Notes: generated by a model not told the origin, from the sequence alone. Shown: positions 2,051 through 58,184, numbered from the stretch's first letter. The stretch: DNA of 64,000 nucleotides from an endosymbiont of Galathealinum brachiosum (GCA_003349885.1 QFXC01000002.1:3850-67849), one strand, 5' to 3'. Program-made: numbers and translations.

Positions 2051-2061
2051 AGAGAAAAACC

Positions 2062-31814: not shown

Positions 31815-31820
31815 AAAACA

Positions 31821-31866: not shown

Positions 31867-31879
31867 TACCTACAACAAC

Positions 31880-37395: not shown

Positions 37396-37447
37396 AAGGG
37401 GACGAAGGGGACGGAGGGATTATTTTTTAATCCCTCCGTCCCCTTTT
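37396..37447. repeat. repeat family A copy with partial internal duplication (aaggggacgaaggggacggaggg)
   Basis: extra gggacgaa half-arm before the full element. Confidence 0.75.
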
Positions 37448-37456
37448 ATTCAATAT

Positions 37457-38198: not shown

Positions 38199-38325
38199 AA
38201 TTCATATTCCTTTTTATTATAAAAACAGTTAAATAGTATCAATTTTAATTAGTGCTATTTTGCTCTGACACCTATCAATATTATAGAAGAAACTGAGCTC
38301 TACTTCATTTATTATCAAAGCCCCA

Positions 38326-39177
38326 CTACTCAGTTTCTTTATTAATCGAGTTCAGACGAATACCATCAGACTCAATCGTAATTATTCTTTCTTTATATAA
38401 ACCACCAATGGCTTTTTTGAAGGCGGCTTTACTCATGCCAAATAGCTCAGTAATGACCTCGGGGTCCGTTCTGTCGTTCACCGTTGCAAAACCCTGCTGA
38501 GATTTTAAATAATCTAAAATAATGTGTTTGTTTTTAGTGCGGGTTTCATCACCGCCCTGCAAGCTTAAGTCTATTTTCCCATCCGGACGAACATGCTTAA
38601 TGAAACCTTTAATGCTTTGCCCAAAACTTAACTGCTTGAACACTTCATTTTTATACAGTACACCCCAGTGCTCATGATTAATAATGGCCTTGTAACCAAG
38701 TTGCGTGCTATTGGCAATAATAAGATCAACAGATTGTTGAGGTTTATAATTGTGAGGGGCATCATCATCCAGAAACTTATCTATTTTAGATGATGCTATG
38801 ATTCGTCCATCTATATCACTAACGTATAAATACACAAGATAAGATTTCCCAACCTCCATCGGTCTATGTTGCTCGGCAAAGGGAACCAGTATATCTTTAT
38901 CTAAACCCCAGTCTAAAAACGCACCTACATTAGTAACATCAACAACACGTAAATAGCAGAATTCTTCTACAGCTGCATAAGCTTCCTGAGTCGTTGCAAT
39001 AGGTAGGCCTTCAGAGTCAAGGTATAGAAAAACCTCAAGTTCATCTCCAATTTCCAGGTCATCTGGTGCAAATTTAATCGGCAATAATACCTCGCCAAGA
39101 TTATCGGCATCCAGGTAGTAACCAAAATCTACTTTTTTCACCACTTCTAAATCATAATAGTAGCCAATTTCAATCAT
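38326..39177 (-). CDS. CvfB/YitL-family S1-domain RNA-binding protein with C-terminal winged helix
   Basis: tandem S1-like repeats then KHIILDYLKSQQGFATVNDRTDPEV...FKKAIGGLYKERIITIESDGIRL wHTH. Confidence 0.6.
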   Translation of the reverse strand: MIEIGYYYDLEVVKKVDFGYYLDADNLGEVLLPIKFAPDDLEIGDELEVFLYLDSEGLPIATTQEAYAAVEEFCYLRVVDVTNVGAFLDWGLDKDILVPFAEQHRPMEVGKSYLVYLYVSDIDGRIIASSKIDKFLDDDAPHNYKPQQSVDLIIANSTQLGYKAIINHEHWGVLYKNEVFKQLSFGQSIKGFIKHVRPDGKIDLSLQGGDETRTKNKHIILDYLKSQQGFATVNDRTDPEVITELFGMSKAAFKKAIGGLYKERIITIESDGIRLNSINKETE

Positions 39178-39235
39178 GTTATATTCTCTGCACCAACGGT
39201 ACTATTTAATGGGGTGTTATATTCGGAATCGATAT

Positions 39236-39285
39236 CAGAGTCTAATATTCACTAATATTAGAAACAATTGCGCTCTGACACCTAT
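39236..39285. repeat. repeat family C copy
   Basis: cagagtctaatattcactaatattagaaacaattgcgctctgacacctat upstream of cvfB-like gene. Confidence 0.6.
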
Positions 39286-39835
39286 TTATATTTATACGTA
39301 AGAAATTCATTAAGCTTATAAAGAACAGTAATATAACATTTTAGCTAGTCTAGCGTTAAAAATATCCGCTTTGAAACTAGATTCTGAATTAATGTTTAAT
39401 GGGTTTATGCCTAATAATTAATCGGTGTCTGATACCTGTTTATATTTTTTCTTATCCTGATATTCTCAGTTCAAAACAGACCTATTCTTTTAAACGCAAA
39501 AATTCGATAGATACCTACATTATCAGTAAAGAAATAAAGCCCGTCATAATAGTGAGCATGTTTAAGCCTGACATAAACAATATCTATTAATTGCATATTT
39601 ATATTTAAAGATTAGCCTCACCTATAAAGTAAGCTTATTGATACAGATAAATAAATCTATAGAGCAGAATAAACGTTATTGATATAGATAAATAAAAACG
39701 TTCTTCAAAGTCATTTTGTTTATATTACGACTATTATTTGTAGTAACTGTGTACAGGTCATAGCTACCCTGTATAACCGCTGGTATACACGAATACCTAA
39801 CTATGAATTATTAGATTAATAAAGGATGCAATCAA

Positions 39836-40885
39836 ATGACTAACATCGAAGATCTGCTAGGTAAAGAAGCAAAGTCCCTTCTCTCTCATACCTGTAATGG
39901 AATACCCAAAGCTAATATACATATTCCGGGACCCGATTATATAAATAGAGTTGTTTCTAAAAAAAACCGTAAACCGAGTGTATTACGAAATCTAAGCGCA
40001 CTGTATAACCATGGCCGACTAGCGGGCACGGGTTATTTATCACTGTTACCGGTTGACCAGGGCGTAGAATATTCTGCCGGCGCTTCATTTGCACCTAACC
40101 CCGCTTTTTTTGATCCTGAAAACATAATTGAATTAGCCATTGAAGGCGGTTGCAATGCAGTCGCGTCAACAATGGGTGTACTTAATTCAATTGCCCGTGA
40201 CTACGCACATAAAATCCCTTTCATTGTTAAAATAAATCATAATGAATTGCTTACCTACCCGAATATTTATGACCAGACTTTATTTGCCAGTGTTAACCAG
40301 GCCTTTGATATGGGTGCTGCAGCAGTCGGTGCAACAATCTATTACGGCTCGCCTGAGTCACGTCGACAAATACAGGAAATATCAGAAGCATTTGAACATG
40401 CACATGAACTCGGTATGGTCACCGTATTATGGGCTTACTTGCGTAACAATGCATTTAAAAAAGGTGGTAACGATTACCATGTTGCCGCCGATCTTACCGG
40501 GCAGGCAAACCACCTTGCCGCCACAATTGACGCTGATATTATAAAACAGAAACAGGCACAGAATAATGGTGGATTTAATGCCATTAATTTTGGTAAAACC
40601 CACCCAGATGTATACAACAAACTGACCAGCGAACACCCTGTTGACCTGGTTCGTTACCAGGTTGCCAACTGTTTTATGGGGCGTGTGGGTATGATTAATT
40701 CCGGCGGCGCATCAGGTGATGATGATTTACACCAGGCGATACGTACTGCGGTAATAAATAAACGGGCCGGCGGCATGGGATTAATCTCAGGCCGTAAAGC
40801 ATTTCAGAAACCAGTGAAGGATGGCATTCATTTACTGAATGCTATTCAGGATGTTTATCTATCCAGTGATGTAACTATTGCCTAA
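39836..40885 (+). CDS. fbaB: fructose-bisphosphate aldolase class I (FbaB/DhnA type)
   Basis: nearly collinear with E. coli FbaB across the whole 349 aa (e.g. [45 protein letters not shown]). Confidence 0.9.
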
Positions 40886-41080
40886 GTTGTTTTATTAACA
40901 CACTAAATTGTAAACAGATCAGATTCTCGTACTATTTAATATTAATTAGATGTATTAATATATAGATTAACAATAAACCTGTGTTTTTATGGTTTATTGA
41001 TATAGATAAATAAACTATAAAAACACAACCACTATATTAACAGTGTTCACAATTACTTTTTATATAAAATATCAGGGGAA

Positions 41081-41479
41081 ATGACTATGCCAACTGTAAA
41101 AAAACCTGCCGTTAAAAAGAAGACTGTCGCGAAGAAGAAGACCGTTACTAAAAAGAAAAAAGCGATAACAAACCGTAAAGCGGCTCAAAATAAACGCAAA
41201 GCTTTAGCTAATAAGCTGAAAGATGATTTAAAAACCACTAAAAATGCACTCAAATTTGCTAAAAAAGCCGCTAAGGAAGAACTTAAACTTGCAAAAGAAG
41301 CAGCCAAAGCTGAAATTGATGTATTAAAAGATCAACTTAAAGCCACATTAAAACGTGAACAGGCACTACTTCAACTTGGAGAAAAGAAAGCCAAAATGAT
41401 GTTGGCAGCTGGTGAACGCTGGGAAAAACAACAAATTGCTAAAATCAAAAAACTGGCTGTAAAAAAACGTCGAAAATAA
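41081..41479 (+). CDS. lysine/alanine-rich histone H1-like protein
   Basis: KKPAVKKKTVAKKKTVTKKKK... low-complexity basic repeats. Confidence 0.5.
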   Translation: MTMPTVKKPAVKKKTVAKKKTVTKKKKAITNRKAAQNKRKALANKLKDDLKTTKNALKFAKKAAKEELKLAKEAAKAEIDVLKDQLKATLKREQALLQLGEKKAKMMLAAGERWEKQQIAKIKKLAVKKRRK

Positions 41480-41647
41480 ATATAAAAAAATCAGGGTCAG
41501 ACAGTAATTTTCGCTAACATTAGAAAACACTACTCTCTAACCCTGTTTTTCGATTTTCCATCGACCCCATTAATTATTTACCCTTTTAATTTCTTAATCA
41601 TATGGCAAAGAAGCTGTTAATAACTTAATACTCTATCAATATATTTA

Positions 41648-42112
41648 TTAATATAGAATGTACGGGCCACCAGCAATCGCAATAACCACACAAAGCCCTA
41701 GTAACATATTAATTAAGCCTAGAATACGTATAACACGTAAATGCCCCTCTGCTCTCTCATGCGCATGACTTTGAATAGAACGCTTGAATTTCTGGTAAAA
41801 AATAAAATATATCAATAAAAAAACGACTATCATCAGCACGCCCAAACATGCCATTACAAGAATATAAACAGGAGCATTCATAAAATCATTAAAACGGTAA
41901 ATAAGCATACCAATCCCCGAGCTCAGCAAGGTCAATACAGCCAGCCATACCCAAAAGAAAAAAGACTTTAGAATATTAACCCACACTGCAAGTTGCTGCT
42001 CCTGGTCCAGCATGCTAATTGCAGGTCCTGACACCACTATAAGAAAAAACATTCCTCCAACCCATATATTAATGGCTATTAAGTGAATGATGATAGCTAT
42101 AGCATTAAGCAT
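41648..42112 (-). CDS. small integral membrane protein
   Basis: 4 TM helices. Confidence 0.4.
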   Translation of the reverse strand: MLNAIAIIIHLIAINIWVGGMFFLIVVSGPAISMLDQEQQLAVWVNILKSFFFWVWLAVLTLLSSGIGMLIYRFNDFMNAPVYILVMACLGVLMIVVFLLIYFIFYQKFKRSIQSHAHERAEGHLRVIRILGLINMLLGLCVVIAIAGGPYILY

Positions 42113-42361
42113 AATATTTACCTAAATGAATAATTATAGGGGCGATGATAAATTATAACGACAATAATTCTCAGTTGTTACCTACCCATTTTATTTCCAT
42201 ATACATTATATAAATCACTAATATCATCAATACAATTTGATAATAATTGGTGCAAGAGAAAAACATCCACTGCTATTAATAATAATTTCGCTCTGACACC
42301 TATTAACTAATTTAAAATAATTATTTATCTTTTACTCTGAACTCAATCATTATTTAAAAAT

Positions 42362-43687
42362 TTATACGTCATGTTTTTTATTTGTAAATTTAATAATTAA
42401 CCAGGTTGAGCTTATAGCAAATATCAATATAGCCGCTGCCGCTACAACATTACTTAACAATTGCGGTGACACAACTAACAACGTTCCCAACATCAGCATC
42501 ATTACACCTGATAACAATTTTAATACAATGCCTTCCTGTTGAGATAATTTTCTTGAACCCAGTTTTATAGTAAATAAAACAACAATAGCTAATAAAGGCA
42601 ATATATAAACCACGTTATACAACATTAGATATAAGTAATAACTTTCTACAGGCAATGATTTTAACGTCAATATTCGGGTGTACACCATCGGAAAGCCAGC
42701 CGTGCATAACAATTCATAGCTATTTGCCACAATAGCTAACACGACTGTAGCCAGAACAACTACCACTATTGAATCAAGACGTAACAGGTATCGGATACGA
42801 TCAAATATTTTAGGCTTTGCATTTTCAGACAAACTTAGTGATACACCTTTTTTAAACCAGAAATAATCTTTAATATTTATAAGTGAAATAACAATAGCAA
42901 CAGCACCTGCTATTAGTGTAATTAGACGTAATTCACCTAAATATATAAACAGGTTAAGCCAGGCAGACATAAACAGGAAATAGATAGCGCCTGAAAAGAA
43001 CACAAAAATACCACCTATCAATGCCATTCTGCTCCGACTCTGACCATGAACCATCATACTCAGCAAAAATAACAAAACAAAAAAAGCACAGGGATTTAAT
43101 GCATCCATACCTGCAATAAAAATGGTTAACATCAGTAGTGAATAATCATCTGTTGATATATCACCCAATATAGGAATATCAACTGATGTTAAATATTTTG
43201 GATCTAATACAAATTTAGTTGTATTGTCTGGATTATTTTCTTTGGCAAATTGATAACATGCTTGCAAATAAGATTTTAATAATTTACCTGTTGTAGCTTT
43301 ACTATCATAACCACTAATCAAATTTCCACAAAACATAAACGTGGGTACGCTGCGCGCATCATTTCCAAACCTTTCAGCCATATCAATATAGGTTTGTACA
43401 TTTTCTGGGTAATTTACTAATTCGAGTGAATGTAATTTTAACCAGGGAAGTTGCTGATCTATTTCATCAATATCAGGCCGTGCTACCTGGCAATGGGGGC
43501 ATTTTTCTGACCAGAAAAAATATAAATGAATAATTGGCTGATCATTTGTGTTTTTCTCATACCAAAGGGGTTCATCTAATGCAAATGCATCCGCCACTGG
43601 CAACATAAGAAAAAACAGCATTAATAGATAACTAATATTTTTTTCTATTCTATTCATTACCTTTCGTTTATCCATCATTATTAGCAA
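42362..43687 (-). CDS. periplasmic thioredoxin-fold domain (CPHC) fused to polytopic DsbD/CcdA-like membrane domain
   Basis: FFWSEKCPHCQVARPD; then 8+ TM helices with Cys in TM segments (NPCAFF, LLCTAGFP). Confidence 0.45.
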   Translation of the reverse strand: MLIMMDKRKVMNRIEKNISYLLMLFFLMLPVADAFALDEPLWYEKNTNDQPIIHLYFFWSEKCPHCQVARPDIDEIDQQLPWLKLHSLELVNYPENVQTYIDMAERFGNDARSVPTFMFCGNLISGYDSKATTGKLLKSYLQACYQFAKENNPDNTTKFVLDPKYLTSVDIPILGDISTDDYSLLMLTIFIAGMDALNPCAFFVLLFLLSMMVHGQSRSRMALIGGIFVFFSGAIYFLFMSAWLNLFIYLGELRLITLIAGAVAIVISLINIKDYFWFKKGVSLSLSENAKPKIFDRIRYLLRLDSIVVVVLATVVLAIVANSYELLCTAGFPMVYTRILTLKSLPVESYYLYLMLYNVVYILPLLAIVVLFTIKLGSRKLSQQEGIVLKLLSGVMMLMLGTLLVVSPQLLSNVVAAAAILIFAISSTWLIIKFTNKKHDV

Positions 43688-43882
43688 TAATTTCTATAAT
43701 CATGCTAACAAAGCACGGGAGGTATCTCCATCAAATATTTTGTGATCCTGATAATTCTTCTCACACCTGCAGCTTGTTATGCTGAGTCTCAAGGTATTGT
43801 GTTAAAAGGAGACTTTCCCCTATAATCGGTCAACTCGACTCATAACAACCCGTCCTGGCCCAATAGTAGACGCCTGAGTATT

Positions 43883-43934
43883 AAAGGGGGCGTGACAATT
43901 GTAAATACTAATAATTATCAGCAGTCACCGACCC
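43883..43934. repeat. repeat family B copy
   Basis: gggggcgtgacaattgtaaatactaataattatcagcagtcaccgacccc. Confidence 0.7.
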
Positions 43935-44105
43935 CATTAATTCACCTCATATTATTATATTATGTCAGCGCAAAAACCGTGACATAATAACCTTATGTTA
44001 CTAACCACTACTCTAGAGACTCTGAAGTGAAACAATCTATAAAACCCAGAACAAAGGCCACTGCCCTGCAGGCATTCTATGGTAATGCAATCTTACGATT
44101 AAGGT

Positions 44106-44834
44106 GTGCTGATAATGCGTGAGCCAATACGACTGGATAAACGTTGTGTTGAGCTGTTTGATTGCTCACGTGGCGATGCAGTGAAGTACATTCAAGGTGG
44201 CTGGGTGCTGGTAGATGGCGAAGTAGAAGAACGCCCTCAGTTTAAAGTGCAGAATCAGCAGATAGAACTGCATGAAAATGCGTCGTTAGAGCCAATTGAA
44301 CCGGTAACGCTACTGCTCAATTTGCCCGATGGGTTTGGTACCGATGATTCAACTGAAATGCAGCAATTAATCACCACCGAGAGCCATTGTGATGAAGATT
44401 ACTCCGGTGTGCACATGCTCAACAAACATTTTTATGATCTTAAACCCGCTTCAATTCTACAGAATGGAGCTTCGGGTTTAATGGTATACAGCAAAGACTA
44501 CAAGGTGATACGCGTACTACTTGAAAATGACAAAAAGAAAGAAGAGGAATACATCGTAGAATTTAGTGACGAGTATACGTCCGAGACACTAGAGAAACTA
44601 AACTGGCTTGCGCATAGTAAAGATGAATCACTTCCTAAATACAAAGCCAGCAAGCAAAGCGAAAAATGCATGCGTTTTGTAATTGAGTTTGCAGACCCCG
44701 ATCAAATTGAAACCCTGTGTAAACGTTTCAACTTAACTATTGTAGCGATGAAACGGATTAGAATAGGTCGGGTTTCTATGAAAAAATTACCGTCTGGTCA
44801 GTGGCGCTATTTATCCAGAAAGGCTATGTTTTGA
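44106..44834 (+). CDS. RsuA-family pseudouridine synthase-like protein lacking catalytic Asp
   Basis: S4 domain (LDKRCVELFDCSRGDAVKYIQGGWVLVDGE) and RsuA-like C-terminus (IRIGRVSM..LPSGQWRYL) but motif II reads ILQNGASGL instead of RLDxDTTGL. Confidence 0.5.
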   Translation: MLIMREPIRLDKRCVELFDCSRGDAVKYIQGGWVLVDGEVEERPQFKVQNQQIELHENASLEPIEPVTLLLNLPDGFGTDDSTEMQQLITTESHCDEDYSGVHMLNKHFYDLKPASILQNGASGLMVYSKDYKVIRVLLENDKKKEEEYIVEFSDEYTSETLEKLNWLAHSKDESLPKYKASKQSEKCMRFVIEFADPDQIETLCKRFNLTIVAMKRIRIGRVSMKKLPSGQWRYLSRKAMF

Positions 44835-44863
44835 GAATATAACTCTAAGAAGAATTGGTATTG

Positions 44864-44907
44864 GAGTGCACACTCTCTAAACATTAGAAACAATTGTGCT
44901 CTGGACT
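44864..44907. repeat. repeat family C copy
   Basis: gagtgcacactctctaaacattagaaacaattgtgctctggac. Confidence 0.6.
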
Positions 44908-44967
44908 TCCCCCTATTATCTTACGCGCTAATGGGTGTTGCTGAGATTAATACAATTATTCAGTAAA

Positions 44968-46077
44968 TTAGGATAATTCCTTAAATTGATTGTAGGCTTT
45001 TTCTAGTCGATCATCTTTTACTTTATTTAAACTAAAAATGGTATCGCATTTATCTGCGGAAGCAAAATCAATCATAATTATATTCGGAAAGAAAGCTTTC
45101 ATACGCATTTTTTGATTAGATTTTCGTTTCAAAATTTTATCCAACGAGAGCTGATGATCGATAGATGCCTCCAGGCCACAGCGCCACAGCTCATCCATTT
45201 TATTAACGCCTGTATTCTTCGACCACAGCAGATTATTTCTGCTCTTGATACTGCTAAGTGATCCCGTAGCAGTCCAATACATCATACCTAATACATAGGG
45301 TGATTGAAGGTCATCGGCATTAGCCATTTGTAACATAAGCTTCTTTTGCTTTTTAAAATTTTCACTCATTTTGCTTTTATTTGTTTTCCAGAAAGCCCCA
45401 GCTGATGTTCCGCCTTTTCCAAAATATTGAAGCCCTTTGTAACCAATAGTATAGGCTTTAGCTGGCCCCTTTTTAGCCTTAAGAGACCTAAAGCCCAGGA
45501 TGCCATCTTTAGCACCTTGCGTTATATCTTTAAGGGCTTTATCGTTAAATACGCAAATCACTTTTCTAGAAACTTCGTCAAGTGTAAGCCTGCCGAAATC
45601 TTTACCCTGATCTACAAATATACTGCTACCAAGAATATTGATACAGTAATCAGCTATCAGCTGATAGTTTGTACACTTATCAAACTTTAAAATAAGAAAC
45701 TCTTTTGAATTACCACGAGTAACAAATGATTTTGCCTGTTTAAGCATGTTGGACAATTTAAGTCCCGTCACTCCATACTTCATACCACTACTAACATTAA
45801 CACTGTAGTCATCCTTGGCATGGCTGCTTTGTAGCTGGACATTAGATGTACTTTTTCCTTTACCATGGTATCCAACTAATGAAGCGCCGTTTTTACCACC
45901 CTGAGCAAGAATACGTAGATCAAATAGACGAATACCGGCATTTGCTTGTTTCCCTATATCGAGATCCTGTGTTTGAACAGCTTTACCCCCATTTGTGATA
46001 GAGGCATCATGACTTCCTGCAAAAATAATTTCGCTTAATCGCTTACCGCCGCCTAGTTGGTGATAGTTAATTCCCAT
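44968..46077 (-). CDS. PI-PLC X-domain-like phosphodiesterase (PLC-like TIM barrel)
   Basis: AGSHDASIT / RLFDLRI / GYHG match bacterial PI-PLC blocks PGTHDSGT / RIFDIRG / LHHGP; lysine-rich C-terminal half. Confidence 0.5.
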   Translation of the reverse strand: MGINYHQLGGGKRLSEIIFAGSHDASITNGGKAVQTQDLDIGKQANAGIRLFDLRILAQGGKNGASLVGYHGKGKSTSNVQLQSSHAKDDYSVNVSSGMKYGVTGLKLSNMLKQAKSFVTRGNSKEFLILKFDKCTNYQLIADYCINILGSSIFVDQGKDFGRLTLDEVSRKVICVFNDKALKDITQGAKDGILGFRSLKAKKGPAKAYTIGYKGLQYFGKGGTSAGAFWKTNKSKMSENFKKQKKLMLQMANADDLQSPYVLGMMYWTATGSLSSIKSRNNLLWSKNTGVNKMDELWRCGLEASIDHQLSLDKILKRKSNQKMRMKAFFPNIIMIDFASADKCDTIFSLNKVKDDRLEKAYNQFKELS

Positions 46078-46126
46078 AATTACATCCTTTATTTATGTCA
46101 ATTTTTATGGATTATAGTCCTTTAAA

Positions 46127-46166
46127 TGAAAGAGGAGCTAATTTTTAATCCCTCCTTTCCTTTTTT
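46127..46166. repeat. degenerate repeat family A copy
   Basis: gaaagaggagctaatttttaatccctcctttcctttttt; right arm intact, left arm decayed. Confidence 0.5.
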
Positions 46167-46213
46167 CACCTTTTTCAAGGCTGCACTCCACCACAAGCCT
46201 ATACATCCCTAAT

Positions 46214-46507
46214 ATGAATGCCGTACTCACAACTTCAGAGCAGCAAAACTGGCTTGCACATAGCAAAAACGAATTACTGCCAAAATACAAAGCCAGCAAG
46301 AAAAGTGAAAAATGCATGCGTTTTGTAATTGAGTTTGCAGACCCCGATCAAATTGAAACCCTGTGTAAACGTTTCAACTTAACTATTGTAGCGATGAAAC
46401 GGATTAGAATAGGCCGGGTATCTATGAAAAAATCACCTCGGGTCAGTGGCGCTATTTATCCAGAAAGGCTATGTTTTGAGAATATACGCCTGTTATTTAT
46501 TAATTAA
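46214..46507 (+). pseudogene. frameshifted duplicate of the 3' end of the RsuA-like gene
   Basis: 46247..46486 ~95% identical to 44601..44841 at nucleotide level with 1-nt indel (attaccgtctggtcag vs atcacctcgggtcag). Confidence 0.6.
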
Positions 46508-46707
46508 ATAAGCGCATTAGCCCTTAAATCAGAACGGGAAATCGGAACGGAAAACAATTTTGTTTTATGCCCGACTCATAGACTGTACAATACTCACACT
46601 GCAGCAACTATATCGACACTTGAAAACCATAATATAAGTATGTTACCAAAATAAATGTACCAGTAACCTGAACTACATTAACAACTCTACCAAAAACAGG
46701 ATGCACA

Positions 46708-48284: not shown

Positions 48285-48555
48285 ATAAAATCTCAGGTGT
48301 ATAAATAATGGAAATTAACAACGAACGGCTCAGGACACTATGGCAGGATTGTGCAAATAACTGATCGCGAGAAAGAGCAAAGACGCCAAGTATAACAGTA
48401 AGCCTTATTATTAAGTCAGCTAAGAAGATAGATACCGAAAATATTTAGCTGGGGTAAATTAGAAACATATCGCTCTTTAAAGGGTTTTATGACAATGACT
48501 GGTGTGAATATTTATCACTTGTCATCACCCCTTCAGTTTAGCGTAGAACTCTCTA

Positions 48556-48789: not shown

Positions 48790-48974
48790 ATCTATCTCCT
48801 GCGTTTTTTGTCATTACCTCAAAGTCTAGCGCACCCTGAATAACACCCATAATAATAAAATTTAAGCTTAATAATTAACTCTATTTATCATTTCTATAAA
48901 CAGGACGAGCTGCACCCACAAACAGTGGTTTATAAGCTATAAAATAAATAGCCAAATGACAAAAGGAGATCGCT

Positions 48975-49547: not shown

Positions 49548-49588
49548 GCACATGACTATCTGCCTGTAACAAAGGTCACTTCACACAA

Positions 49589-50305
49589 GTGACCTTTTTT
49601 AATGAAGTAAATAATATGAAAATAATTGTTTTTATCATCCTGATTTTTACAATAACATTTAGTTTAAATAGTGTTGCTGAGATAGCGCCCACTAACAGCG
49701 AGCTTGAAAAATGGTTTAATAGTGATGACGAACTATCAACCGAGCATGTCAATGAAGGCGAATTAAATTTTCTGGAAAAAACCCCGGAAATACCCAACTT
49801 TCATTCTATAAATCGACTTTCTATTAGTCAGGAAAGCTTAATAACAGGCTGGGTACTACTCGAGCAATGTTACGAGAATCTTGACCCTGTCCCAGTAACT
49901 GACATTGAGTATCAATATAAATCAATACGTAATTTACGCATAACAACACAACAGAATATTGAAGCGGCAACCGTTGATAATAAGACTATTCATCTTGATA
50001 CCGTAAATAAAAATGCAAAACTCTGCATTAAAGCCGAAGTAAAAATTTTAAAAAAAATGAACAACACTCATTTTAGTTTAACTAACGGTCCATTTCATCG
50101 ACAGTTTCTGGATGGTTACTACCCATACCATTTAAGCCTACAGATAAATTACCCATCATCAATTCTGCAGCTTGCATCAACCTCACCCAGAAATCAAAAA
50201 GGTTTCATAGTAAAAAAAGAAGTTGATATGCTTTATATTGAAAGTCACTTCGAAGGCAAACTGATAATACATTTTATGTTTAATAAAATAATCGCTAACT
50301 CATAA
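49589..50305 (+). CDS. secreted hypothetical protein
   Basis: signal peptide. Confidence 0.35.
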   Translation: MTFFNEVNNMKIIVFIILIFTITFSLNSVAEIAPTNSELEKWFNSDDELSTEHVNEGELNFLEKTPEIPNFHSINRLSISQESLITGWVLLEQCYENLDPVPVTDIEYQYKSIRNLRITTQQNIEAATVDNKTIHLDTVNKNAKLCIKAEVKILKKMNNTHFSLTNGPFHRQFLDGYYPYHLSLQINYPSSILQLASTSPRNQKGFIVKKEVDMLYIESHFEGKLIIHFMFNKIIANS

Positions 50306-50316
50306 AAAACGTAGCC

Positions 50317-50802
50317 CTACATATTATTTTTTAAAGCTGTAAGCGCCCGAAGAAAATTTTCTGAATTGTCACAGGGTATACGACAGTCGATGGTGCCCTT
50401 CCACCCCTCCTGAAAAGCGGCGGCATCTATCACTATTCGAAGTCGCGCTTTTTCATCAAGACTAATATCAAATGCCTTAAACGATTCGTGTGAGACAGGC
50501 ACGTGAAAAACAGGCGGGATAACGTTTCCTCGGAAGCACGCAAAACTATTTTTTGTAAGAACAACCGAACCCATAATCAATGAGATTTTTCGGCCATAAT
50601 ACACATAAGGTGCACGGAAGTTTCTGTATCTAACCACAATGGACAGCCCTTCATCCTGAAGTATAATACCTTCTTTTTCCATGTCACTGCGATATCGTTC
50701 TGGGATTTTTCCAAATCCGAACCAGCGATAGAGAATCGATTTCGCCATGTATATTTCTAACCTTGTATCTGAGTTTATATTTGAGCTTAATGAATTAAAC
50801 AT
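50317..50802 (-). CDS. hypothetical protein
   Basis: ORF only. Confidence 0.3.
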   Translation of the reverse strand: MFNSLSSNINSDTRLEIYMAKSILYRWFGFGKIPERYRSDMEKEGIILQDEGLSIVVRYRNFRAPYVYYGRKISLIMGSVVLTKNSFACFRGNVIPPVFHVPVSHESFKAFDISLDEKARLRIVIDAAAFQEGWKGTIDCRIPCDNSENFLRALTALKNNM

Positions 50803-50828
50803 GAGTAATCGTATTTACTGAAGAGTTA

Positions 50829-51470
50829 TTAAGCCCTACGGGTTTTAATATCAACGACGGTATCGGATGATTTTCTCTTCAAGTGTATATTCATATCAAA
50901 CAGCTCAGCAATAGAACGGCTTTGCTGTAAACGGCGTCTGAGAAATTCACGGGTATTGCGCTGATTTTGAGAACGATCCATAACCCAGTAGCTAAAGGTA
51001 AGTAGATAGAGAGACGTCAGACCTATCTCCTCAGCAATACGCGAAAGATGGGTTGTCTGGCTATGTGCTGCTTCAAGAAACCACTGCACAGTACGGCTAA
51101 CCCTCAAAACACCCAGAACCTGCAAGTGTAAATGGGCAGGCTCAAGCTTATATAACAACATATCTCTGGAAACGGTTTTGTGTTTCGCAAGCTCATCTAA
51201 CCAGGCCATGATAAGCGAATGAATGCGACTGGCTTTGTTCAGGTTCAGAAAATCAGCAGGTTCAGCCGTCTTCAACATGGACTGATCTGCCCTGTCATAC
51301 CAGGCCTCAACCAAATCATCTTTCTGACGGTAAAACATATGAAGACGACTCAACGGAATATCAATCCGCTCTGCTACATCGTGTAACCGTAAAGACTCCC
51401 AGCCACAATTGTCTGCCAGGAGTAAAGCCGTATCCAGAATCATATCTGCCTGATTATGCGATCTGCTCAT
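50829..51470 (-). CDS. TetR/AcrR-family transcriptional regulator
   Basis: N-terminal HTH ILDTALLLADNCGWESLRLHDVAERIDIPLSRLHMFYRQKDDL. Confidence 0.7.
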   Translation of the reverse strand: MSRSHNQADMILDTALLLADNCGWESLRLHDVAERIDIPLSRLHMFYRQKDDLVEAWYDRADQSMLKTAEPADFLNLNKASRIHSLIMAWLDELAKHKTVSRDMLLYKLEPAHLHLQVLGVLRVSRTVQWFLEAAHSQTTHLSRIAEEIGLTSLYLLTFSYWVMDRSQNQRNTREFLRRRLQQSRSIAELFDMNIHLKRKSSDTVVDIKTRRA

Positions 51471-51569
51471 GGTGGTTAACCTCTATGCTTATATAAATAA
51501 GAATAGCTCAGATGTGATGAATAAAGTTAATGAACGGATAACTGGTTGTGCCTTAAGCGTGAATTGCTA

Positions 51570-51613
51570 GCAGAGCACAATACTCTCTAATATTAGAAAC
51601 AATTGTGCTCTGG
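51570..51613. repeat. repeat family C, most complete copy (cagagcacaat-actctctaatattagaaa-caattgtgctctg)
   Basis: 13-bp inverted repeat arms around an AT-rich core; in promoter region of TetR gene. Confidence 0.7.
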
Positions 51614-51643
51614 CATCTATTTTCAGCGAGCACTTAAACTAAT

Positions 51644-52603
51644 TTATAGCGACTGCAATTGCCGTTTTTCACTGTATCGTTTGCATTCACTGAAGTATTT
51701 TTTTGTACTTACAGGCATTGGTGTTCTGGCACGGGTAATAAATGCAATTAACCTGCAGCCGTGCTTCATCAGATATTTAATATCGAATTCACGCATCAGT
51801 GAATGGTTTATTGCAGCCTCTTCTGTTACAGACGAAAAGTCAATAATCGCTTCACCAGCCACCACAAAGTCTGACCAGACATCCAGCACATTGTCATCAG
51901 TACGCAGGGTTTCGCATTTGTATTTAGCGGTTTGCGCATAGTTTAAAATTAGCGGCTCTAAACCGGCAAAACGGCGATCTTCTTTTATGCTATCCGTCAT
52001 ATATGCGGCAACCTGATCAAGATTTTTCATGGTCATTGCGATTTTTACATAACGACTTTCATAGAATTCTTCTATGGGCATAATAAATGCTTTAAAAGGT
52101 TCTCCCCAAAGCTCATCAATACCTTCATCACCATTGCGGTGTTTAACCATTTTTCCATATTCCAGTGCCTGCTGAAGGCACTTGCCACAGGTTCTCATTA
52201 AATCATTGTCTGGTTTAATTTCTACACCTTTGGCCTCCAACTCTACAAGACTGGTAAAGATGTCAGCGGCTCGATTAAACAGAGCCCCTGCTAACATGGC
52301 ACCCTTTACCCGTTTTTTACTCTGATCGGTTTCTGCTTCATACACGTCAAACACTTCTTCAAGCAATCTGCCCGGAATATTAATGCCGTGTTCCATATGA
52401 TTAAATAAGCGGCGTGTTAATGACTGTATCAGATCTTTTTTAGCGGTCAGGTTATCTACAGGAGGCTTATAACATTTTACCCAGTAGCCATCGTAATAGA
52501 CGGAAGTAACCCCATCATTTTCTTTACGTAAGCCATTTTTTACGGTGTCTTTCATGCTTAATTCGCTATCACTAATTTTATTATTCTCTACAAACAAACC
52601 CAA
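51644..52603 (-). CDS. hypothetical protein
   Basis: ORF only; no family recognised. Confidence 0.35.
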   Translation of the reverse strand: MGLFVENNKISDSELSMKDTVKNGLRKENDGVTSVYYDGYWVKCYKPPVDNLTAKKDLIQSLTRRLFNHMEHGINIPGRLLEEVFDVYEAETDQSKKRVKGAMLAGALFNRAADIFTSLVELEAKGVEIKPDNDLMRTCGKCLQQALEYGKMVKHRNGDEGIDELWGEPFKAFIMPIEEFYESRYVKIAMTMKNLDQVAAYMTDSIKEDRRFAGLEPLILNYAQTAKYKCETLRTDDNVLDVWSDFVVAGEAIIDFSSVTEEAAINHSLMREFDIKYLMKHGCRLIAFITRARTPMPVSTKKYFSECKRYSEKRQLQSL

Positions 52604-52749
52604 ACTTTGCTCATGTATTAATTATAGCGCTAAAAAATCTTCTATTGTTACTTTATCAAAGACAAAAAAACTAATTATTTAGCAGATTTAGAGTAACGAG
52701 TGATAACGGCAGTTAAGCCATTATCGCCTTCTTTGTATATTTAATTAAT

Positions 52750-52794
52750 TAGTGCCAGAGCACAATACTCTTCAATCATAGAAACAATTATGCC
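52750..52794. repeat. repeat family C copy
   Basis: gccagagcacaatactcttcaatcatagaaacaattatgcccag. Confidence 0.6.
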
Positions 52795-52849
52795 CAGCCG
52801 TAAGCACTCGAAGAAAACTTTCAATATAAAACAAATAATCTGGGGGGGT

Positions 52850-53413
52850 TCACTCTGACACTTTTTTACTTTTTAATTTAACATCAGATTTTAAGAGTTT
52901 TTTCAAAAAACCTATATAAACAGGACTCATCCATTCGCGCCCACCAATAGCCTGATACTTCACTTCACCTTTAGGGTTTATCAAAAATGATGTGGGTAAA
53001 CCTCGAGGCTTCCATACTTCGGTAACCAGCCCATCAACATCCATCAAACTATTCAAATCAACATTTATAGAACCTAAAAACTCAAAAACGGTATCTTCAT
53101 CTTCAGCCGTATTAACCATTACAATTTGAAATGCTTCACCCTTCATTTTATCAGCTAACTCTTGTATCACCGGCATCTCTTCTCTACAAGGACCACACCA
53201 GCTTGCCCAGAAGTGAAGAAAAACCCAGCGCCCTTTTGAATCATTTAATTCAAATGGCTCACCATCAATATCATTTAAGGTAAAGTTTTGTGCACTACCA
53301 ATATCATAATGCCGTATACCAAAGGGCACCTCTGAGCTACTTGCATTTATCGATAAGTTTACAAATACGCCAAGCACAAAAACCATTAGTGTTAATACTT
53401 GTTTTATACTCAT
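52850..53413 (-). CDS. TlpA/ResA-like periplasmic thiol:disulfide oxidoreductase (start at MSIKQV)
   Basis: signal peptide; FLHFWASWCGPCREEMP. Confidence 0.7.
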   Translation of the reverse strand: MSIKQVLTLMVFVLGVFVNLSINASSSEVPFGIRHYDIGSAQNFTLNDIDGEPFELNDSKGRWVFLHFWASWCGPCREEMPVIQELADKMKGEAFQIVMVNTAEDEDTVFEFLGSINVDLNSLMDVDGLVTEVWKPRGLPTSFLINPKGEVKYQAIGGREWMSPVYIGFLKKLLKSDVKLKSKKVSE

Positions 53414-53952
53414 TCTGCATTCTCTTGCGCATCTTCGGCACAATATAATTTATCTGTGGTAATCACTATTTGTTCACCTTGTTTATTCTCACCGGTCGCG
53501 AACGTTGCAGTAACGCTTATCGGCTGATCACTAAAGGGCAATAGAATATTACCCCCTTCATGCTCACCTGGCAGGTAATCCAGTGTTTCAGGAATTAACG
53601 TCCAGCGAAATGTAGACTGCTTACTCAACGGCACACCCATGTTTTGCCAGCGTTGTTTCCAGTAGTCGCGATGTTCTCGTATTATGGGTTTACCACCCGC
53701 GGTAAATTTCCAGTTACTCATATCTAACCAGATTTTTTTATTACTTGTATTGTGTATGCCAATAGTGATGAAACATTGTTGTTTAATCACATCACGCATC
53801 TCTTTAGGAAACCCACGCGCTTCATAAAACGAGCCCATTTGGTTCGCTGATCTCGGCGTAAAGTTTACTTCCATTTCTGGTGTTTTTACGATAACAGGCT
53901 GAACAGCTTGCATACTTGTAACGACTAGACCTAGTGTGATTAATTTAAACAT
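53410..53952 (-). CDS. periplasmic hypothetical protein, co-transcribed with TlpA-like gene
   Basis: signal peptide; ATGA overlap with downstream gene. Confidence 0.4.
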   Translation of the reverse strand: MFKLITLGLVVTSMQAVQPVIVKTPEMEVNFTPRSANQMGSFYEARGFPKEMRDVIKQQCFITIGIHNTSNKKIWLDMSNWKFTAGGKPIIREHRDYWKQRWQNMGVPLSKQSTFRWTLIPETLDYLPGEHEGGNILLPFSDQPISVTATFATGENKQGEQIVITTDKLYCAEDAQENAE

Positions 53953-54020
53953 TATTGACCGTGTGTTATGTTTATTTAAAAATTATTAAATTAATTGATG
54001 CCCACTCTGGCACCTGTTAA

Positions 54021-54818
54021 TTATACATCTACAACTAAACTTACATCAAACCCAACTACATTCTCACCCGGATACCCCGCCTGATTTGAAAGAATCCGTG
54101 TATCACTAATAACCCTGTCTAAATTTGCATGAGTATGCCCGTAAATCCACAGGTTAATATCAAACATTTCAATCAACGAGCTTAAGTCTGAGTGAAAAGC
54201 CGCAGTCAACTCATCTACCGGAAATGCCGGATGCTGACAAACAGGATGAGGCCCATGATGAGTAACAATAACGGTTTTACCCTTAAACGGCTCAGACAGT
54301 TTTTGCTTCAACCAGTTTAATTCGATATTGTGTTGTGTGAGTGCATGGTGAGGTTTAAATTTTAGATAACGTCCATCTGAATTGAAACGTATTTTTCGAT
54401 GATCGGCCAACACATTTTCTATACTCAGCATTACCCGCTCTTTTGGTATAGCCGTGAATGCTTTGTAATCTGTCCATAACGTAGCACCCAGAAACCGAAC
54501 ATCATCTACAATGCATTCACCATAATCTAAACATGAGACCTGTGTACCTTCACAAAGCTTTTGTATTTTATCTTTCAGGTGATTAAACTCATGCCCATAA
54601 TATTCATGGTTACCTGATACATAAATAATTTTTTTAGATAACCGCTCAGCTTCAGAAATAGCCCACTCTACCCCATGAACACCTGTATCAATATCACCCG
54701 CCAATACAATAATATCTGTATCGGTTTCTGGTAAACGACCAGACCATTTATGCAAAGGGTCAAACTTACCACTTCTTAAAAACTCATTATGTAAATCACT
54801 GAGAATATGTATTTTCAT
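54021..54818 (-). CDS. calcineurin-like metallophosphoesterase
   Basis: MKIHILSDLHNEF, GDIDTGVHG, GNHEYYG, GHTH motifs. Confidence 0.7.
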   Translation of the reverse strand: MKIHILSDLHNEFLRSGKFDPLHKWSGRLPETDTDIIVLAGDIDTGVHGVEWAISEAERLSKKIIYVSGNHEYYGHEFNHLKDKIQKLCEGTQVSCLDYGECIVDDVRFLGATLWTDYKAFTAIPKERVMLSIENVLADHRKIRFNSDGRYLKFKPHHALTQHNIELNWLKQKLSEPFKGKTVIVTHHGPHPVCQHPAFPVDELTAAFHSDLSSLIEMFDINLWIYGHTHANLDRVISDTRILSNQAGYPGENVVGFDVSLVVDV

Positions 54819-54953
54819 AGTTATTTATCAGGTTTTATAAATAATTTAAAATTAAACGAGTTCCAGAATAGTAACTAACTACATATAATATTGGCTAGAC
54901 CTGAAGCATTCTGGGTCATTTATTATGTTCGTATCTACCTGTTACAACTGTAC

Positions 54954-55385
54954 CTACTTATTAATAAATAACTGATTGATTTCATCAGATTTAAGAATAG
55001 CCGCTAATTTATACGCTTGCCCTGTTTCCTGAATCAATACTTCAGCAGGTATACCTAAGCCTTGATGTAACTTACGAATCATACTTAAACTTAATGGTCG
55101 TTTTCCATTAAGCACTTCTGATACTTTTGATGCAGAACCAAAATATTTAAGCATATCTTTTTGCTGCAACCCCTGCTGCTCCATACGAAATTTAATAGCT
55201 TCAAGAGGCACAGGTTTATCGACAGGAAACTGTTCACGCTCATAGTGTTCAATTAGCACTGACAACACTTCCAGCTCATTCTCTTCATTAGAACCAGATG
55301 CAGGATTCAAATGCATTAATGCCATCAATCGTTCAACAGCCAATTTATGCTCAGCTTTAGACTTAATTACTTTTAGAATAGACAT
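54954..55385 (-). CDS. higA: HigA antitoxin (E. coli YgjM type, C-terminal HTH)
   Basis: GSASKVSEVLNGKRPLSLSMIRKLHQGLGIPAEVLI parallels E. coli HigA GSKSMVSRVLSGKRKLTLEHAKKLATRFGISPALFI. Confidence 0.8.
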   Translation of the reverse strand: MSILKVIKSKAEHKLAVERLMALMHLNPASGSNEENELEVLSVLIEHYEREQFPVDKPVPLEAIKFRMEQQGLQQKDMLKYFGSASKVSEVLNGKRPLSLSMIRKLHQGLGIPAEVLIQETGQAYKLAAILKSDEINQLFINK

Positions 55386-55396
55386 TAACCATCTCC

Positions 55397-55681
55397 TTAA
55401 AACTTTTGCTTATCATACTCAGCATGCGTACCAACCCATTCAATAACGACGATTCCATTCTGATACCTCACTTTCACTACAAGGCGATAGTGATTACCTT
55501 TAATATTAAAAATTACCCGGTTATCTGCCAGAAAATCAGCGGAGTTATACCTGTTTTTAATATCCTGCGGTGTAACCCATTGAGCTCTGTTCGCCTCATC
55601 AAACCATGCGTCTAATGCGCCTTTGCCGTGATTATGCTTTTTTGAGAACTTATCAAGTATGTCACGTCCTATGACTCTCAT
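55397..55681 (-). CDS. higB: HigB toxin (RelE/ParE superfamily, E. coli YgjN type)
   Basis: NRVIFNIKGNHYRLVVKVRYQNGIVVIEWVGTHAEYD parallels E. coli HigB HYVFNVGGNELRVVAMVFFESQKCYIREVMTHKEYD; toxin-first order. Confidence 0.8.
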   Translation of the reverse strand: MRVIGRDILDKFSKKHNHGKGALDAWFDEANRAQWVTPQDIKNRYNSADFLADNRVIFNIKGNHYRLVVKVRYQNGIVVIEWVGTHAEYDKQKF

Positions 55682-55691
55682 ATAGATCTAC

Positions 55692-55735
55692 CTTCCCATT
55701 TTGGGAATTATACACTCATTTCCCAAAATGGGAAG
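55692..55735. promoter_or_regulatory. perfect 16-bp inverted repeat in higBA promoter (putative HigA operator)
   Basis: cttcccattttgggaa ... ttcccaaaatgggaag, 12-bp spacer, 11 bp upstream of higB start. Confidence 0.55.
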
Positions 55736-56870
55736 ATTAAATATAATTTATGTCCTTAGATTTAACTTATTTATAACCTCTAAGCTAACATATTGATATA
55801 TATGGATTATATTTCAAAGTTAGCGATATAAATCTTCAGCTTTAGCAAGTGAACCGTATATAAGCACCAGTACTATTTGCTCATTTACTGACGTAATGCT
55901 GCCTTAATTACATCTACAATGGCAAACGTTTTTCGAATCATATTTAACAACTCACTGTAGGAGTTATCTTCAGATGACGATACAAAAGCGATGCGAAGCG
56001 AGCCATGTAACTTACACAACACACACCGCTTAGTAACAACCATCACAACTCATAACAAACCCCAGTCTCTTTAACCTCCCCACTCCCATCACCACCAACA
56101 TCATCACGCACCAACTGCTGCTCAATAAACTCATCAAGCGCATCACCATGCACCAGATAAACCCCTTTACGAAGCCGATACAAAAACCGCGTGCGACTCA
56201 TTTCAACCCGCCCTGGCTCAATAGTTGAAGCCGGTAAAAATGAATTATTGTAATCAGTAGTCACATCAGAAAAATAAGCCTTAAACTGTTTAAGCGTAAC
56301 CACCACACCCCTGTCTTCAATAGAACCCAACTCCCCCTTAACCACCGCATCTAAAAACCGCTGCTTTAAAGTGATGATAAATCCTTATCAAATTTAATTA
56401 CCAAACTCACAACACACAACTCGCACCTAAACCCAACGCTTCACTACTCGTTCCCACGGTCCCCCTTGGTAACGCATACCAAACTCAAAGTACGATACAA
56501 ACCCAAAACATCATTCCTTCTCCTTACCACCCACCTGATTCATCTCAAAAATTCCACTAATAATTTCCCCCATCACCCACAAATAATTATCAACCTGCTC
56601 ATGAAACACATCAGGGTGAACATCATCACCACAACACACAGGTTTAAACACAGGCGGGTTATCAAGCAAATGAACAAGATGCCCCGTATAACGAATCAAG
56701 CGCACCTTATACTGAGTATCATTAAACCTGGTGGGTAAACCTTGCTCATCATCCACATCAAAAGAATGAAACCGCAACGGAATTTCAACCAGCTTAGCTG
56801 GCTTAGAAGAAGACTTTTCAAATTGATCATCACACATAAAAACACTCCCTATTAAAAGTTAACCATCTCT

Positions 56871-56947
56871 TGTAGGTGCTCCTTCAGGTGCACATCTTTT
56901 GTAGTTTCATAACCATTATGTTTAGTGCACCTAAAGGAGCACCTACA
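56871..56947. repeat. inverted pair of repeat D 23-mers forming a long hairpin
   Basis: tgtaggtgctccttcaggtgcac ...31 nt... gtgcacctaaaggagcacctaca. Confidence 0.6.
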
Positions 56948-57711
56948 AAGTAAAACGTCATACCTGCGAAGGCAGGTACCCAGCGACTTAAAATCAAATA
57001 TAAAAGGAAACCAGAACCCCAAACGAGGCTCCAGCAAGTTCAACCACCCATGACTAATACACACTGCCAAAACACAAAACCCACCCACAGCAAAACCTCA
57101 ACAACACACAATCTCGCAGTCGAATTAAAGCAGGCCTGATCAAAAAACGAACAATAACGCCCGTGGTTTCCAATAAACCGAACAGATAAAGTGAAATCAA
57201 AGAATAAAAGCGCCGAAACTCACCTGAGAATACAGAAAAATGCACAGGTAAAAACGCAGGGTGTGAAGAAAAATAACGGATTGCCGAAAAAAAACTACCG
57301 GCAATAGGGTGTCCTAGCTTAGAATGTGTCTCAGCCATATTCAACTCGTTATAGTTGGTTGTGGTTAGCAGGCTTTCGGTGTTACAGCACCTTGGGTCTG
57401 CGATTTTTTATTTTATAAAGTTAGTTAGCCGATAGATCTCTCCTGTTGTTTTCTGTAGTTATTAAAACCACATATATTAAAAATAGATAATGAAGCGCAC
57501 GTTGTTAATGCTCGCTTATTGAGTGTATGCAAGGTGGAAGATAGTTGTCAAATTAATATTTTATAGAACTACAGATGTGATTTTATACTTTTCAGACTAC
57601 TACTTAAAATCATTTATATTTATAAGCATTAAGAAAATAAACATGAAGCAACTAACGTACTACTTGAAGCTATCATGACCCTATATATTTATTTACTTAC
57701 ACTAAAACAGG

Positions 57712-57996
57712 TTAAGTTATATTATGACTTGAAGGCAATGAGACTTGATAACGAGAGCCAACTTTGAAATATTCAATACGCCCTTCATTAACTAACTTTT
57801 CCATCATTACCGACATCAACCAGCCTTTCTGACCATCTTCTGTAGGACTATAAGACAGCAAATCAAGACCAAGATCTTTTTTTAGAACAGCGGCTTTAAC
57901 TGAAGCTTGACCATCATTAGATTGCAATCTAATATAATCTATAATTACGTCACCAATAGAATTAAGATGATTTTCTATATTTTTCTTATGATTCAC
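57712..57996 (-). CDS. small hypothetical protein downstream of the 3-gene cassette
   Basis: ORF only; 188 bp downstream of the REC gene on the same strand. Confidence 0.3.
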   Translation of the reverse strand: MNHKKNIENHLNSIGDVIIDYIRLQSNDGQASVKAAVLKKDLGLDLLSYSPTEDGQKGWLMSVMMEKLVNEGRIEYFKVGSRYQVSLPSSHNIT

Positions 57997-58184
57997 TCAA
58001 CACCTTCCAATCCTCTTCATTCGATTTATACCATCCATTTATTACTTGCTATTTATAGAACAATGCTCAACACATCCTATTATTAGGAATAATTTCGTAC
58101 TGACAATTGATAATGGCATATTGAAATTTAAAACCATAATAATTTTCATTCTGAACTGCCTGATAAATTGTATTCTAATTAGAT

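Follow-up and report, generated by a model that had tools for sequence, protein, structure and literature searches.

Gene-less inverted-repeat doublets in the genome of a Galathealinum brachiosum endosymbiont are probably the fused ends of a Y1/HUH transposase element

Family C copies in the window and their architecture

We analysed a 64,000-nt stretch of DNA (hereafter the window) from an endosymbiont of Galathealinum brachiosum (GCA_003349885.1 QFXC01000002.1:3850-67849), in which an intergenic element with inverted-repeat arms, here called family C, occurs repeatedly. A previous reading made from the sequence alone (the sequence-only reading) had listed nine copies between 38 and 58 kb and had suggested a shared operator for one regulator, a promoter-associated repetitive extragenic palindrome (REP) or a remnant of a miniature inverted-repeat transposable element (MITE). 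The window was searched with a profile made from its own copies (nhmmer) and with a separate arm-only profile. The copy-derived profile revealed six full doublets of ~65 bp each, with E-values of 3e-17 to 2e-12 and the best match always on the + strand, and the 18-mer AGAAACAATTGYGCTCTG was found five times with up to three mismatches, compared with 0.10 occurrences expected from shuffles. Together with one statistically supported solo arm, these doublets show that family C is a real repeat. Seven of the nine listed places hold supported copies, so the earlier observation is real for those seven. At 48456, neither profile gave a match; the entry at 58089 corresponds to a possible, very degenerate arm (58082..58105, +), which resembled the arm at 42276 by eye at 22 of 32 positions and had no statistical support (arm profile E 7.1).

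The best preserved doublet, with both arms and the centre CTAATATTAG, lies at 51559..51625 (+; nhmmer E 2.9e-17), 19 bp past the stop codon of 51644..52603(-) and 89 bp ahead of the start of 50829..51470(-). It was correctly placed by the sequence-only reading (51570..51613), but its perfect arms are 11 bp long (CAGAGCACAAT / ATTGTGCTCTG) rather than 13 bp; around it, the stretch 51562-51621 forms a ~60-nt imperfect palindrome that is 80% self-complementary about CTAATATTAG. The doublet at 39224..39287 (+; E 4.9e-16) occupies the divergent gap between the cvfB-like gene 38326..39177(-) and the aldolase gene 39836..40885(+), and that at 41486..41553 (+; E 1.8e-12) occupies a convergent gap, 7 bp past the stop of 41081..41479(+) and 95 bp past the stop of 41648..42112(-). 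The other three doublets are decayed. At 42241..42307 (+; E 4.9e-13), the right arm is whole (GCTCTGACACCTATT) and the left arm degraded; at 44849..44914 (+; E 9.8e-14), in a convergent gap 15 bp past the stop of 44106..44834(+), the right arm is truncated at its outer end; and at 52743..52810 (+; E 3.2e-13), 40 bp past the stop of 52850..53443(-), the left arm is whole (TTAGTGCCAGAGCACAAT) and the right arm degraded. The solo arm (ATTAGTGCTATTTTGCTCTGACACCTAT) lies at 38248..38275 (+; arm profile E 0.0045), 51 bp past the cvfB-like stop; the copy at 38246 had also been considered as an internally deleted doublet, which was dropped for a solo arm after arm-profile alignment. The clustering of the element that had been remarked upon in the 38-58 kb region was borne out, as all seven supported copies lie within 38.2-52.85 kb, which contains 30% of the intergenic DNA of the window (post-hoc p about 2e-4). 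Among the genes neighbouring the copies, Pfam supports the CvfB-like protein and a DeoC/LacD-family aldolase; the label of a TetR gene proved weak, with COQ9 (27.8 bits) as the sole Pfam match apart from TetR_C_23 below threshold.

An exact-pattern scan over one genome per species revealed 54 stretches, about 40 of which hold the whole element. The hosts were nearly all uncultured Gammaproteobacteria (Thiotrichaceae, Thiohalomonadales, Ectothiorhodospiraceae or unclassified). Two to four copies each are present in L006, L042, L043, L045 and L057. The nearest relative of the window by CvfB identity (91%), the Thiotrichaceae metagenome-assembled genome (MAG) CAZHEA01, also carries family C (L048). 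Exact family C 18-mers numbered one to five per MAG, and the copies per genome are probably in the tens, not the hundreds. Full doublets were also observed in bins labelled Halobacteria (L013, L031 and L040), Chlorobiota (L025) and Flavobacteriaceae (L026); these distant-phylum and archaeal-class doublets are probably mis-binned gammaproteobacterial contigs, the alternative being horizontal spread. Viral contigs gave two matches only, both to an unrelated conserved coding 18-mer, and a literature search for the arm sequence returned nothing but unrelated primer matches. The arm sequence of family C is new; the kind of element is already known, namely the palindromic doublets associated with the TIRYT and RAYT (REP-associated tyrosine transposase) enzymes.

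Each doublet is composed of two ~30-nt arms fused head to head at CTAATATTAG. In the outer stem, an A-rich flank and a foot of the GGGGTCAG type (GGTGTCAG in the window) pair with CTGACCCC and a T-rich flank, and an asymmetric internal loop of 3-5 nt lies between the outer and inner stems. The family consensus is aaNAAtN-GGGGTCAGAGCACAAT-(T/A)T(T/A)(C/T)C-TCTAATATTAGA-AACA-ATTGTGCTCTGACCCC-NNTTTT. In an alignment of 37 copies, the foot reads (A/T)nGGGGTCAG or AATAGGTGTCAG, and neither GTAG nor GTGG occurs there; GGGGTCAG, the outer end of the consensus, fits GGGGWSAS. This alignment of 37 doublets is free of gaps, and 76.8% of its cells are paired, compared with about 38-40% when the 3' partners are slid. 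Of the 28 pairs, 16 have changed on both sides, and the observed values were reached by none of 500 shuffles. Between genomes, the outer stem varies as GGGGTC/GACCCC, GGTGTC/GACACC or GGTTCC/GGAACC; the foot columns 11-58 hold GC in 20 sequences and UA in 11, and columns 25-29 and 40-44, mostly unpaired, correspond to the asymmetric internal loop. In the predicted folds of the doublets, arm pairs with arm. As single-stranded DNA, 51559..51625 is predicted to fold at -12 kcal/mol (z -3.7 on the + strand and -4.3 on the - strand), and 39224..39287 (z -3.3) and 41486..41553 (z -3.1) also fold significantly better than shuffles. The three decayed doublets give a weak hairpin (42241..42307, z -2.2) or none (44849..44914, z +0.4; 52743..52810, z -0.9).

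Placement of the copies and their turnover between relatives

The sequence-only reading had described the copies as promoter-proximal. Their distances to the nearest minus-strand start in the window are 46, 89, 129 and 140-188 bp, which agrees with this description as far as it goes; it is nevertheless one-sided, since the copies are nearer to stop codons. Those near minus-strand starts also lie 19, 55 and 40 bp past the stop of the next gene, the range in the window being 7-55 bp, and the two copies at 41486 and 44849 are in convergent gaps. Among 43 classifiable copies from many genomes, 39 are intergenic, though about 81% of the DNA is in called open reading frames (ORFs), and the other four are in small, dubious ORFs. 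The intergenic copies lie between tandem genes in the same (9/39) or the opposite (12/39) orientation, between convergent gene ends (11/39) and between divergent gene starts (7/39). We found no promoter association and no gene-orientation bias among these 39 copies, and on this criterion, set by the sequence-only reading itself, the operator and promoter readings fail.

The copies also turn over between relatives. At the orthologous cvfB loci L139-L142 (84-87% nucleotide identity), the copy upstream of cvfB is absent in all four relatives, and at the orthologues of a 319-aa gene (L135-L138; 82-93%), both flanking copies are absent, again in four of four. The corresponding post-stop positions in relatives hold other arms with a GGGG foot, belonging to a second palindrome family of the window, family B, in L135, L137 and L142 and to family C in L141. 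Occupancy therefore changes between lineages as expected of mobile repeats, not of operators. A shared operator would require that the palindrome is bound by a regulator acting as a dimer, for which the local TetR-like protein would be a candidate, and that the downstream minus-strand genes are thereby co-regulated. The palindromic form of the element, the two copies located 46 and 89 bp upstream of minus-strand starts and the outer arm end CTGACA, which resembles a -35 hexamer in two or three copies, are in line with this idea. It is, however, extremely improbable, as the copies are missing at the eight orthologous loci, 11 of them lie between convergent genes where no promoter exists, there is no orientation bias and the assignment of the TetR protein is weak. 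Moreover, the conserved unit is ~60 bp long with a conserved centre and elsewhere flanks a transposase gene. Promoter-like consensus sites in the region numbered 42 against 55 expected, with no excess and no coincidence with the copies, which leaves a promoter-associated role equally without footing. As a side observation, a 21-nt direct repeat, TTATTGATATAGATAAATAAA, occurs at 39635-39655 and 39676-39696 upstream of the aldolase gene 39836..40885 and at 40994-41014 downstream of it; as an operator candidate, this repeat is preferable to family C.

The proximity to stop codons raises the question of an RNA hairpin that serves the host, as a stabiliser in the 3' untranslated region (3' UTR) or as a terminator, and that is kept for its effect on the transcript. 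Copies 7-55 bp past stop codons fit this function, convergent gaps are mildly over-represented for their length (11 observed versus about 7 expected), and REPs are mostly located downstream of ORFs (Di Nocera et al. 2013, PMC3733652). The sequences themselves fit it less well. The tails past the doublets read CTATTT or CTATTA and contain no T-run, and none of the nine terminator-like sites in 38-53.5 kb overlaps a copy. Mismatches of the G:T and A:C types are equally frequent in the stems (46 each), and thus neither strand is favoured as transcribed RNA. The copies show no orientation bias relative to the upstream gene, seven of them lie in divergent gaps, and three of the six window doublets no longer fold. 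Rfam 15 gave no match at gathering thresholds in the window, nor at E up to 1 in 38-53.5 kb, and a tRNA scan of the window found nothing. We regard the RNA hairpin as unlikely; it and an origin of the doublets from transposon ends are not mutually exclusive.

Homology with relatives ends close to doublet edges. Homology with the relatives L140 and L141 ends at 39223, the exact edge of the doublet 39224..39287, and the four stops lie 0, 8, 15 and 40 bp from doublet edges (39223/39224, 44841/44849, 51640/51625 and 52703/52743). This may be trivial, or the repeats may act as rearrangement junctions. A 1.06-kb block (51640-52703) is bracketed by two doublets of the same orientation, and its gene is found in four different contexts in relatives. 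These two observations could be accounted for by recombination or cassette-boundary sites, in which doublets bracket exchanged gene-sized blocks in the manner of integrons or IS200. We consider such sites very unlikely: intergenic DNA diverges fast anyway and synteny is poor across the lineage (gene neighbourhoods differ in every relative examined), the relatives do not show this gene between two matching doublets, and few junctions were sampled. Integron attC sites were also considered and rejected; the sequence shows no attC-type core sites with RYYYAAC or GTTRRRY ends, and it has core genes (cvfB, aldolase and DEAD-box helicase) interspersed. Beside one of these edges, the S4-domain gene 44106..44834 has its 3' end duplicated at 93% identity (44591-44841 / 46237-46486), the second copy forming a fragment ORF of 97 aa (46214..46507). 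The duplicated sequence stops 8 bp short of the doublet 44849, and the sequence further downstream is unrelated.

Association of the arms with a Y1 transposase gene

The same arms are found around a transposase gene in related genomes. In L002, a locus of a Thiohalomonadales MAG, family C arms at 1406-1437 and 2219-2252 enclose, in inverted orientation, the single ORF 1431..2144, the stop codon of which falls inside the CTAAT of the arm. The right arm of the window doublet 39224..39287 is identical to the arm flanking this gene at 30 of 31 positions. The encoded protein of 237 aa matched Pfam Y1_Tnp (E 3.5e-15), and its top NCBIfam match was REP_Tyr_transpos, the REP-associated tyrosine transposase (65.7 bits). 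It contains the motifs ...MTNHVHLL..., ...LWEGRY... and ...YRYIELNP..., which are invariant in 11 homologues, and agrees with the signature given for subclass 2.1 by Quentin et al. (2018; about 238 aa, NHVH, W[EQ] and YIELNP).

A metagenome scan with the L002 protein revealed 80 loci at 52-62% identity. Outward-facing arms similar to those of family C, of the form ...TATATTAGAAACAATTGCTCTCTGACCCGGTTTT, lie beside the gene in about 13 of the closest homologues (L069, L082 and loci within L055-L065), on both sides in nine of them, and the spacing of the arms in L002 and its closest homologues is about 750-800 bp. Both flanks were available for 59 loci, and in 49 of these the gene is flanked by an inverted repeat of 16 nt or more. 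These repeats mostly begin with (G)GGGTCAG, GGGGACAG or GGGGTCGG; the strict GGGGWSAS occurs in both arms of 21 of the 49, and GGGTCAG is the reading in most of the rest. The cultured bacterium Pseudoalteromonas sp. THAF3 also encodes a homologue, 52% identical to the transposase of L002 (plasmid pTHAF3_a 663598-664266; NZ_CP045419.1, L145), and AAAGGGTCAGAGTTGTTGA arms flank its gene, one upstream and four in tandem, inverted, downstream. This homologue is missing from the distributed gene table of NZ_CP045419.1. Upon comparison of gene-bearing elements with gene-less doublets, we found the left arm of the doublet (CAAT-TTCYC-TCTAAT) to be the counterpart of the 3' arm of the transposase gene and the right arm (ATTAGAAACAATTG) that of the 5' arm, so that arm polarity is the same in both.

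Because the same arms flank a Y1 transposase in related genomes, we read the window copies as two ends fused without a gene. It is highly probable, in our assessment, that family C consists of gene-less doublets of the terminal inverted repeats (TIRs) of a TIRtron, the element of a TIRYT Y1/HUH transposase (RAYT Group 1, TnpA-Y1 subclass 2.1). The earlier suggestion of a REP or a MITE remnant would thus be right in kind, with the arms as the TIRs of a Y1-transposase element. The doublets would be non-autonomous passengers similar to REPINs, which an enzyme acting in trans presumably mobilises in the form of single-strand hairpins. On the model of E. coli TnpA-REP and of IS608 and ISDra2, both arms would fold into a hairpin on single-stranded DNA, and a Y1 transposase supplied in trans would recognise the hairpin and its foot. 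As described for TnpA-REP on REPs and bacterial interspersed mosaic elements (BIMEs) and for IS608 and ISDra2, the enzyme would then cut and rejoin single strands, thereby copying or moving the doublet. The cognate enzyme is assumed to be encoded elsewhere in the source genome, and effects on neighbouring genes, such as 3' UTR hairpins or rearrangement hot spots, would be a by-product, if any. All six window doublets are on the C-rich (+) strand, which would fit lagging-strand targeting, but this bias was not reproduced in other loci, where orientation relative to local GC skew was 24:15 (not significant).

A classical MITE of a DDE transposon, for example of the Tn3 family with GGGG ends, would likewise be short, intergenic and multi-copy and would have terminal inverted repeats, and the GGGGTC start presumably recalls the ends of Tn3-family elements. 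This origin is nonetheless highly improbable. Where family C arms are separated, a Y1 transposase gene is all that was found between them (L002 and about nine metagenomic loci), and the flanks of the copies are inverted (AAAAnn / nnTTTT) rather than direct target-site duplications. Furthermore, the ends of the DDE insertion sequence (IS) observed in these loci are different (GAATGGCAC...), and it uses the arms as insertion sites rather than as its own termini.

We observed this IS, with a DDE_Tnp_1 transposase and ends GAATGGCACTWAGTTAAG, inside GGGG-foot arms in L141 (8286-9840), and a gene-less ~210-bp form was inserted in a family C doublet in L036 (3483-3692). Single ends occur in L016, L044, L055, L071, L118 and L139, and the window holds no copy. 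The IS appears to target GGGG-foot repeats; IS1397 and ISPpu9 target REPs in a comparable manner.

A further possibility is that the doublets and their sister families with a GGGG foot are junctions at which a Y1 transposase excises and reinserts gene-sized blocks. If so, two hairpins of the same orientation that bracket a host gene would act like the left and right ends of IS200/IS605 elements, and the bracketed 1.06-kb block, the homology stops 0-40 bp from doublet edges and the exchange of arm families at post-stop positions would all be explained. We consider such junctions decidedly unlikely.

Several points weigh against the reading of family C as gene-less TIRtron ends. To our knowledge, no biochemistry exists for any subclass 2.1 enzyme. 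The score of the L002 protein (65.7 bits) is below the NCBIfam equivalog cut-off of 80 bits, a sequence search of the Protein Data Bank with this protein alone gave no match, and a profile search brought only marginal matches to solved Y1 transposases (E 0.02-0.2; ISDra2 TnpA 2xm3 and E. coli TnpA-REP). No Y1 transposase gene was found by tblastn within the 64-kb window, so that a cognate enzyme in this organism is presumed. The feet of the window copies (GGTGTCAG, GATGCCAG and AGTGCCAG) depart from GGGG by one or two bases, reading GGTG, AGTG or GATG instead. Single arms, unlike canonical REPs, are not self-complementary and have no internal stem longer than 3 bp, and the covariation of the stem could stem from two-fold recognition of duplex DNA rather than from a hairpin. 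We found no clean pair of filled and empty sites at the cvfB (L139-L142) or 319-aa gene (L135-L138) loci, because synteny is broken at every flank examined; mobility is thus deduced from distribution and was not observed. Finally, Quentin et al. (2018, PMC6006769) found no REP-like structures beside subclass 2.1 genes.

Sister families and comparison with known systems

Family B, the second palindrome of the window (AAAGGGGTCGGTGACAAWTG...CAATTGTCACCGACCCCTTT), lies at 32723-32783, 42136-42196 and 43883-43943. In three metagenomic loci (L071, L118 and L119), further transposase genes of the TIRYT type lie between family B arms, which makes family B a sister family of TIR doublets. Family A combines an A-run and a T-run with a 16-bp stem that is nearly perfect (GGGGACGGAGGGATTA) and resembles a bidirectional terminator; it may also be a family of transposase ends, as L003 (about 7060-7125) has a GGGGGACGGAG arm ahead of a TIRYT-like ORF at the locus edge. 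It is found in the window at 22608-22664, 23364-23420, 26886-26942, 28631-28687, 31816-31872 and 37397-37453, with variants at 25583-25622 and 46132-46171, and also in L028, L043 and L094. Additionally, a small gene pair at 54954-55385 and 55397-55681 resembles a HigB/HigA-type toxin-antitoxin system, judged by the translations only, and toxin-antitoxin pairs also lie beside the 319-aa gene in the relatives L137 and L138. The public Logan contig of L137 ends at about 4984-5005 in an Illumina adapter (AGATCGGAAGAGCGTCGTGTAG), which is an assembly artefact.

For annotation of the window, the family C motif is to be masked as a repeat, not marked as a regulatory site. Among the REP-type tyrosine transposases, no group is larger or less well understood than RAYT Group 1, and surveys disagree on it, as one found no repeat structures beside the genes and another found inverted repeats. 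Family C provides a clean case of element ends that are fused into gene-less doublets and spread through intergenic DNA, and supplies concrete substrates (arm, foot and internal loop) for the study of subclass 2.1 enzymes.

Correia, ERIC and other DDE-derived MITEs are, as family C is, small, intergenic, palindromic and multi-copy. In contrast to family C, they have target-site duplications and DDE-transposase parents. In the case of the IS200/IS605 elements (IS608 and ISDra2), the transposases belong to the same superfamily (Pfam Y1_Tnp), ISDra2 TnpA 2xm3 gives a weak profile match, and a single-strand hairpin is the substrate that would be expected of the enzyme linked to family C. They differ from family C in that each end has a subterminal hairpin of its own instead of an inverted repeat, the Y motif reads Y---Q and the elements are autonomous and multi-copy.

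Similarity was also found to the REP/BIME system with TnpA-REP of E. coli and the REPIN-RAYT system of Pseudomonas, which likewise comprise extragenic palindromic doublets that form a long bulged hairpin (Bertels and Rainey 2011, PMC3116915; Messing et al. 2012, PMC3479197). In these systems, too, the Y1 gene is flanked by its own repeats, the repeats are family-specific with several families per genome, and a dedicated IS inserts into them, as one does into family C repeats. The differences concern the foot of family C, which lacks the GT[AG]G tetranucleotide, and the single arm, which is not a palindrome. The linked transposase is of a different subclass with a C-terminal extension, and copies probably number in the tens rather than the hundreds. 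The element on pTHAF3_a of THAF3 resembles family C in its homologous transposase and AAAGGGTCAGAGTTGTTGA arms; the inner arm sequence is different, and a tandem array instead of a single end is present downstream.

The arrangement of arms and gene in family C is exactly the one described for TIRtrons. Di Nocera, De Gregorio and Rocco (2013, PMC3733652) reported that TIRYT genes are flanked by TIRs sharing GGGGWSAS and that TIR families are moderately abundant and often dimers. TIRYT corresponds to TnpA-Y1 subclass 2.1 (Quentin et al. 2018, PMC6006769) and to RAYT Group 1 (Bertels et al. 2017, PMC5581495), in which the flanking 16-mers occur about 12 times per replicon. The gene-bearing loci of family C (L002 and its relatives) share with these elements a ~238-aa Y1/HUH transposase with NHVH, WE and YIELNP and the location of the gene between long inverted repeats with a GGGGWSAS outer end (GGGGTCAG in family C). 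They also share the dispersal of the repeats as singles, dimers and clusters, the window containing six dimers and one single. Unlike the described TIRtrons, family C has a new arm sequence and is hosted by uncultured Gammaproteobacteria of the sulfur-oxidiser type, and its doublet joins both ends exactly, head to head, with their 5'/3' polarity kept.

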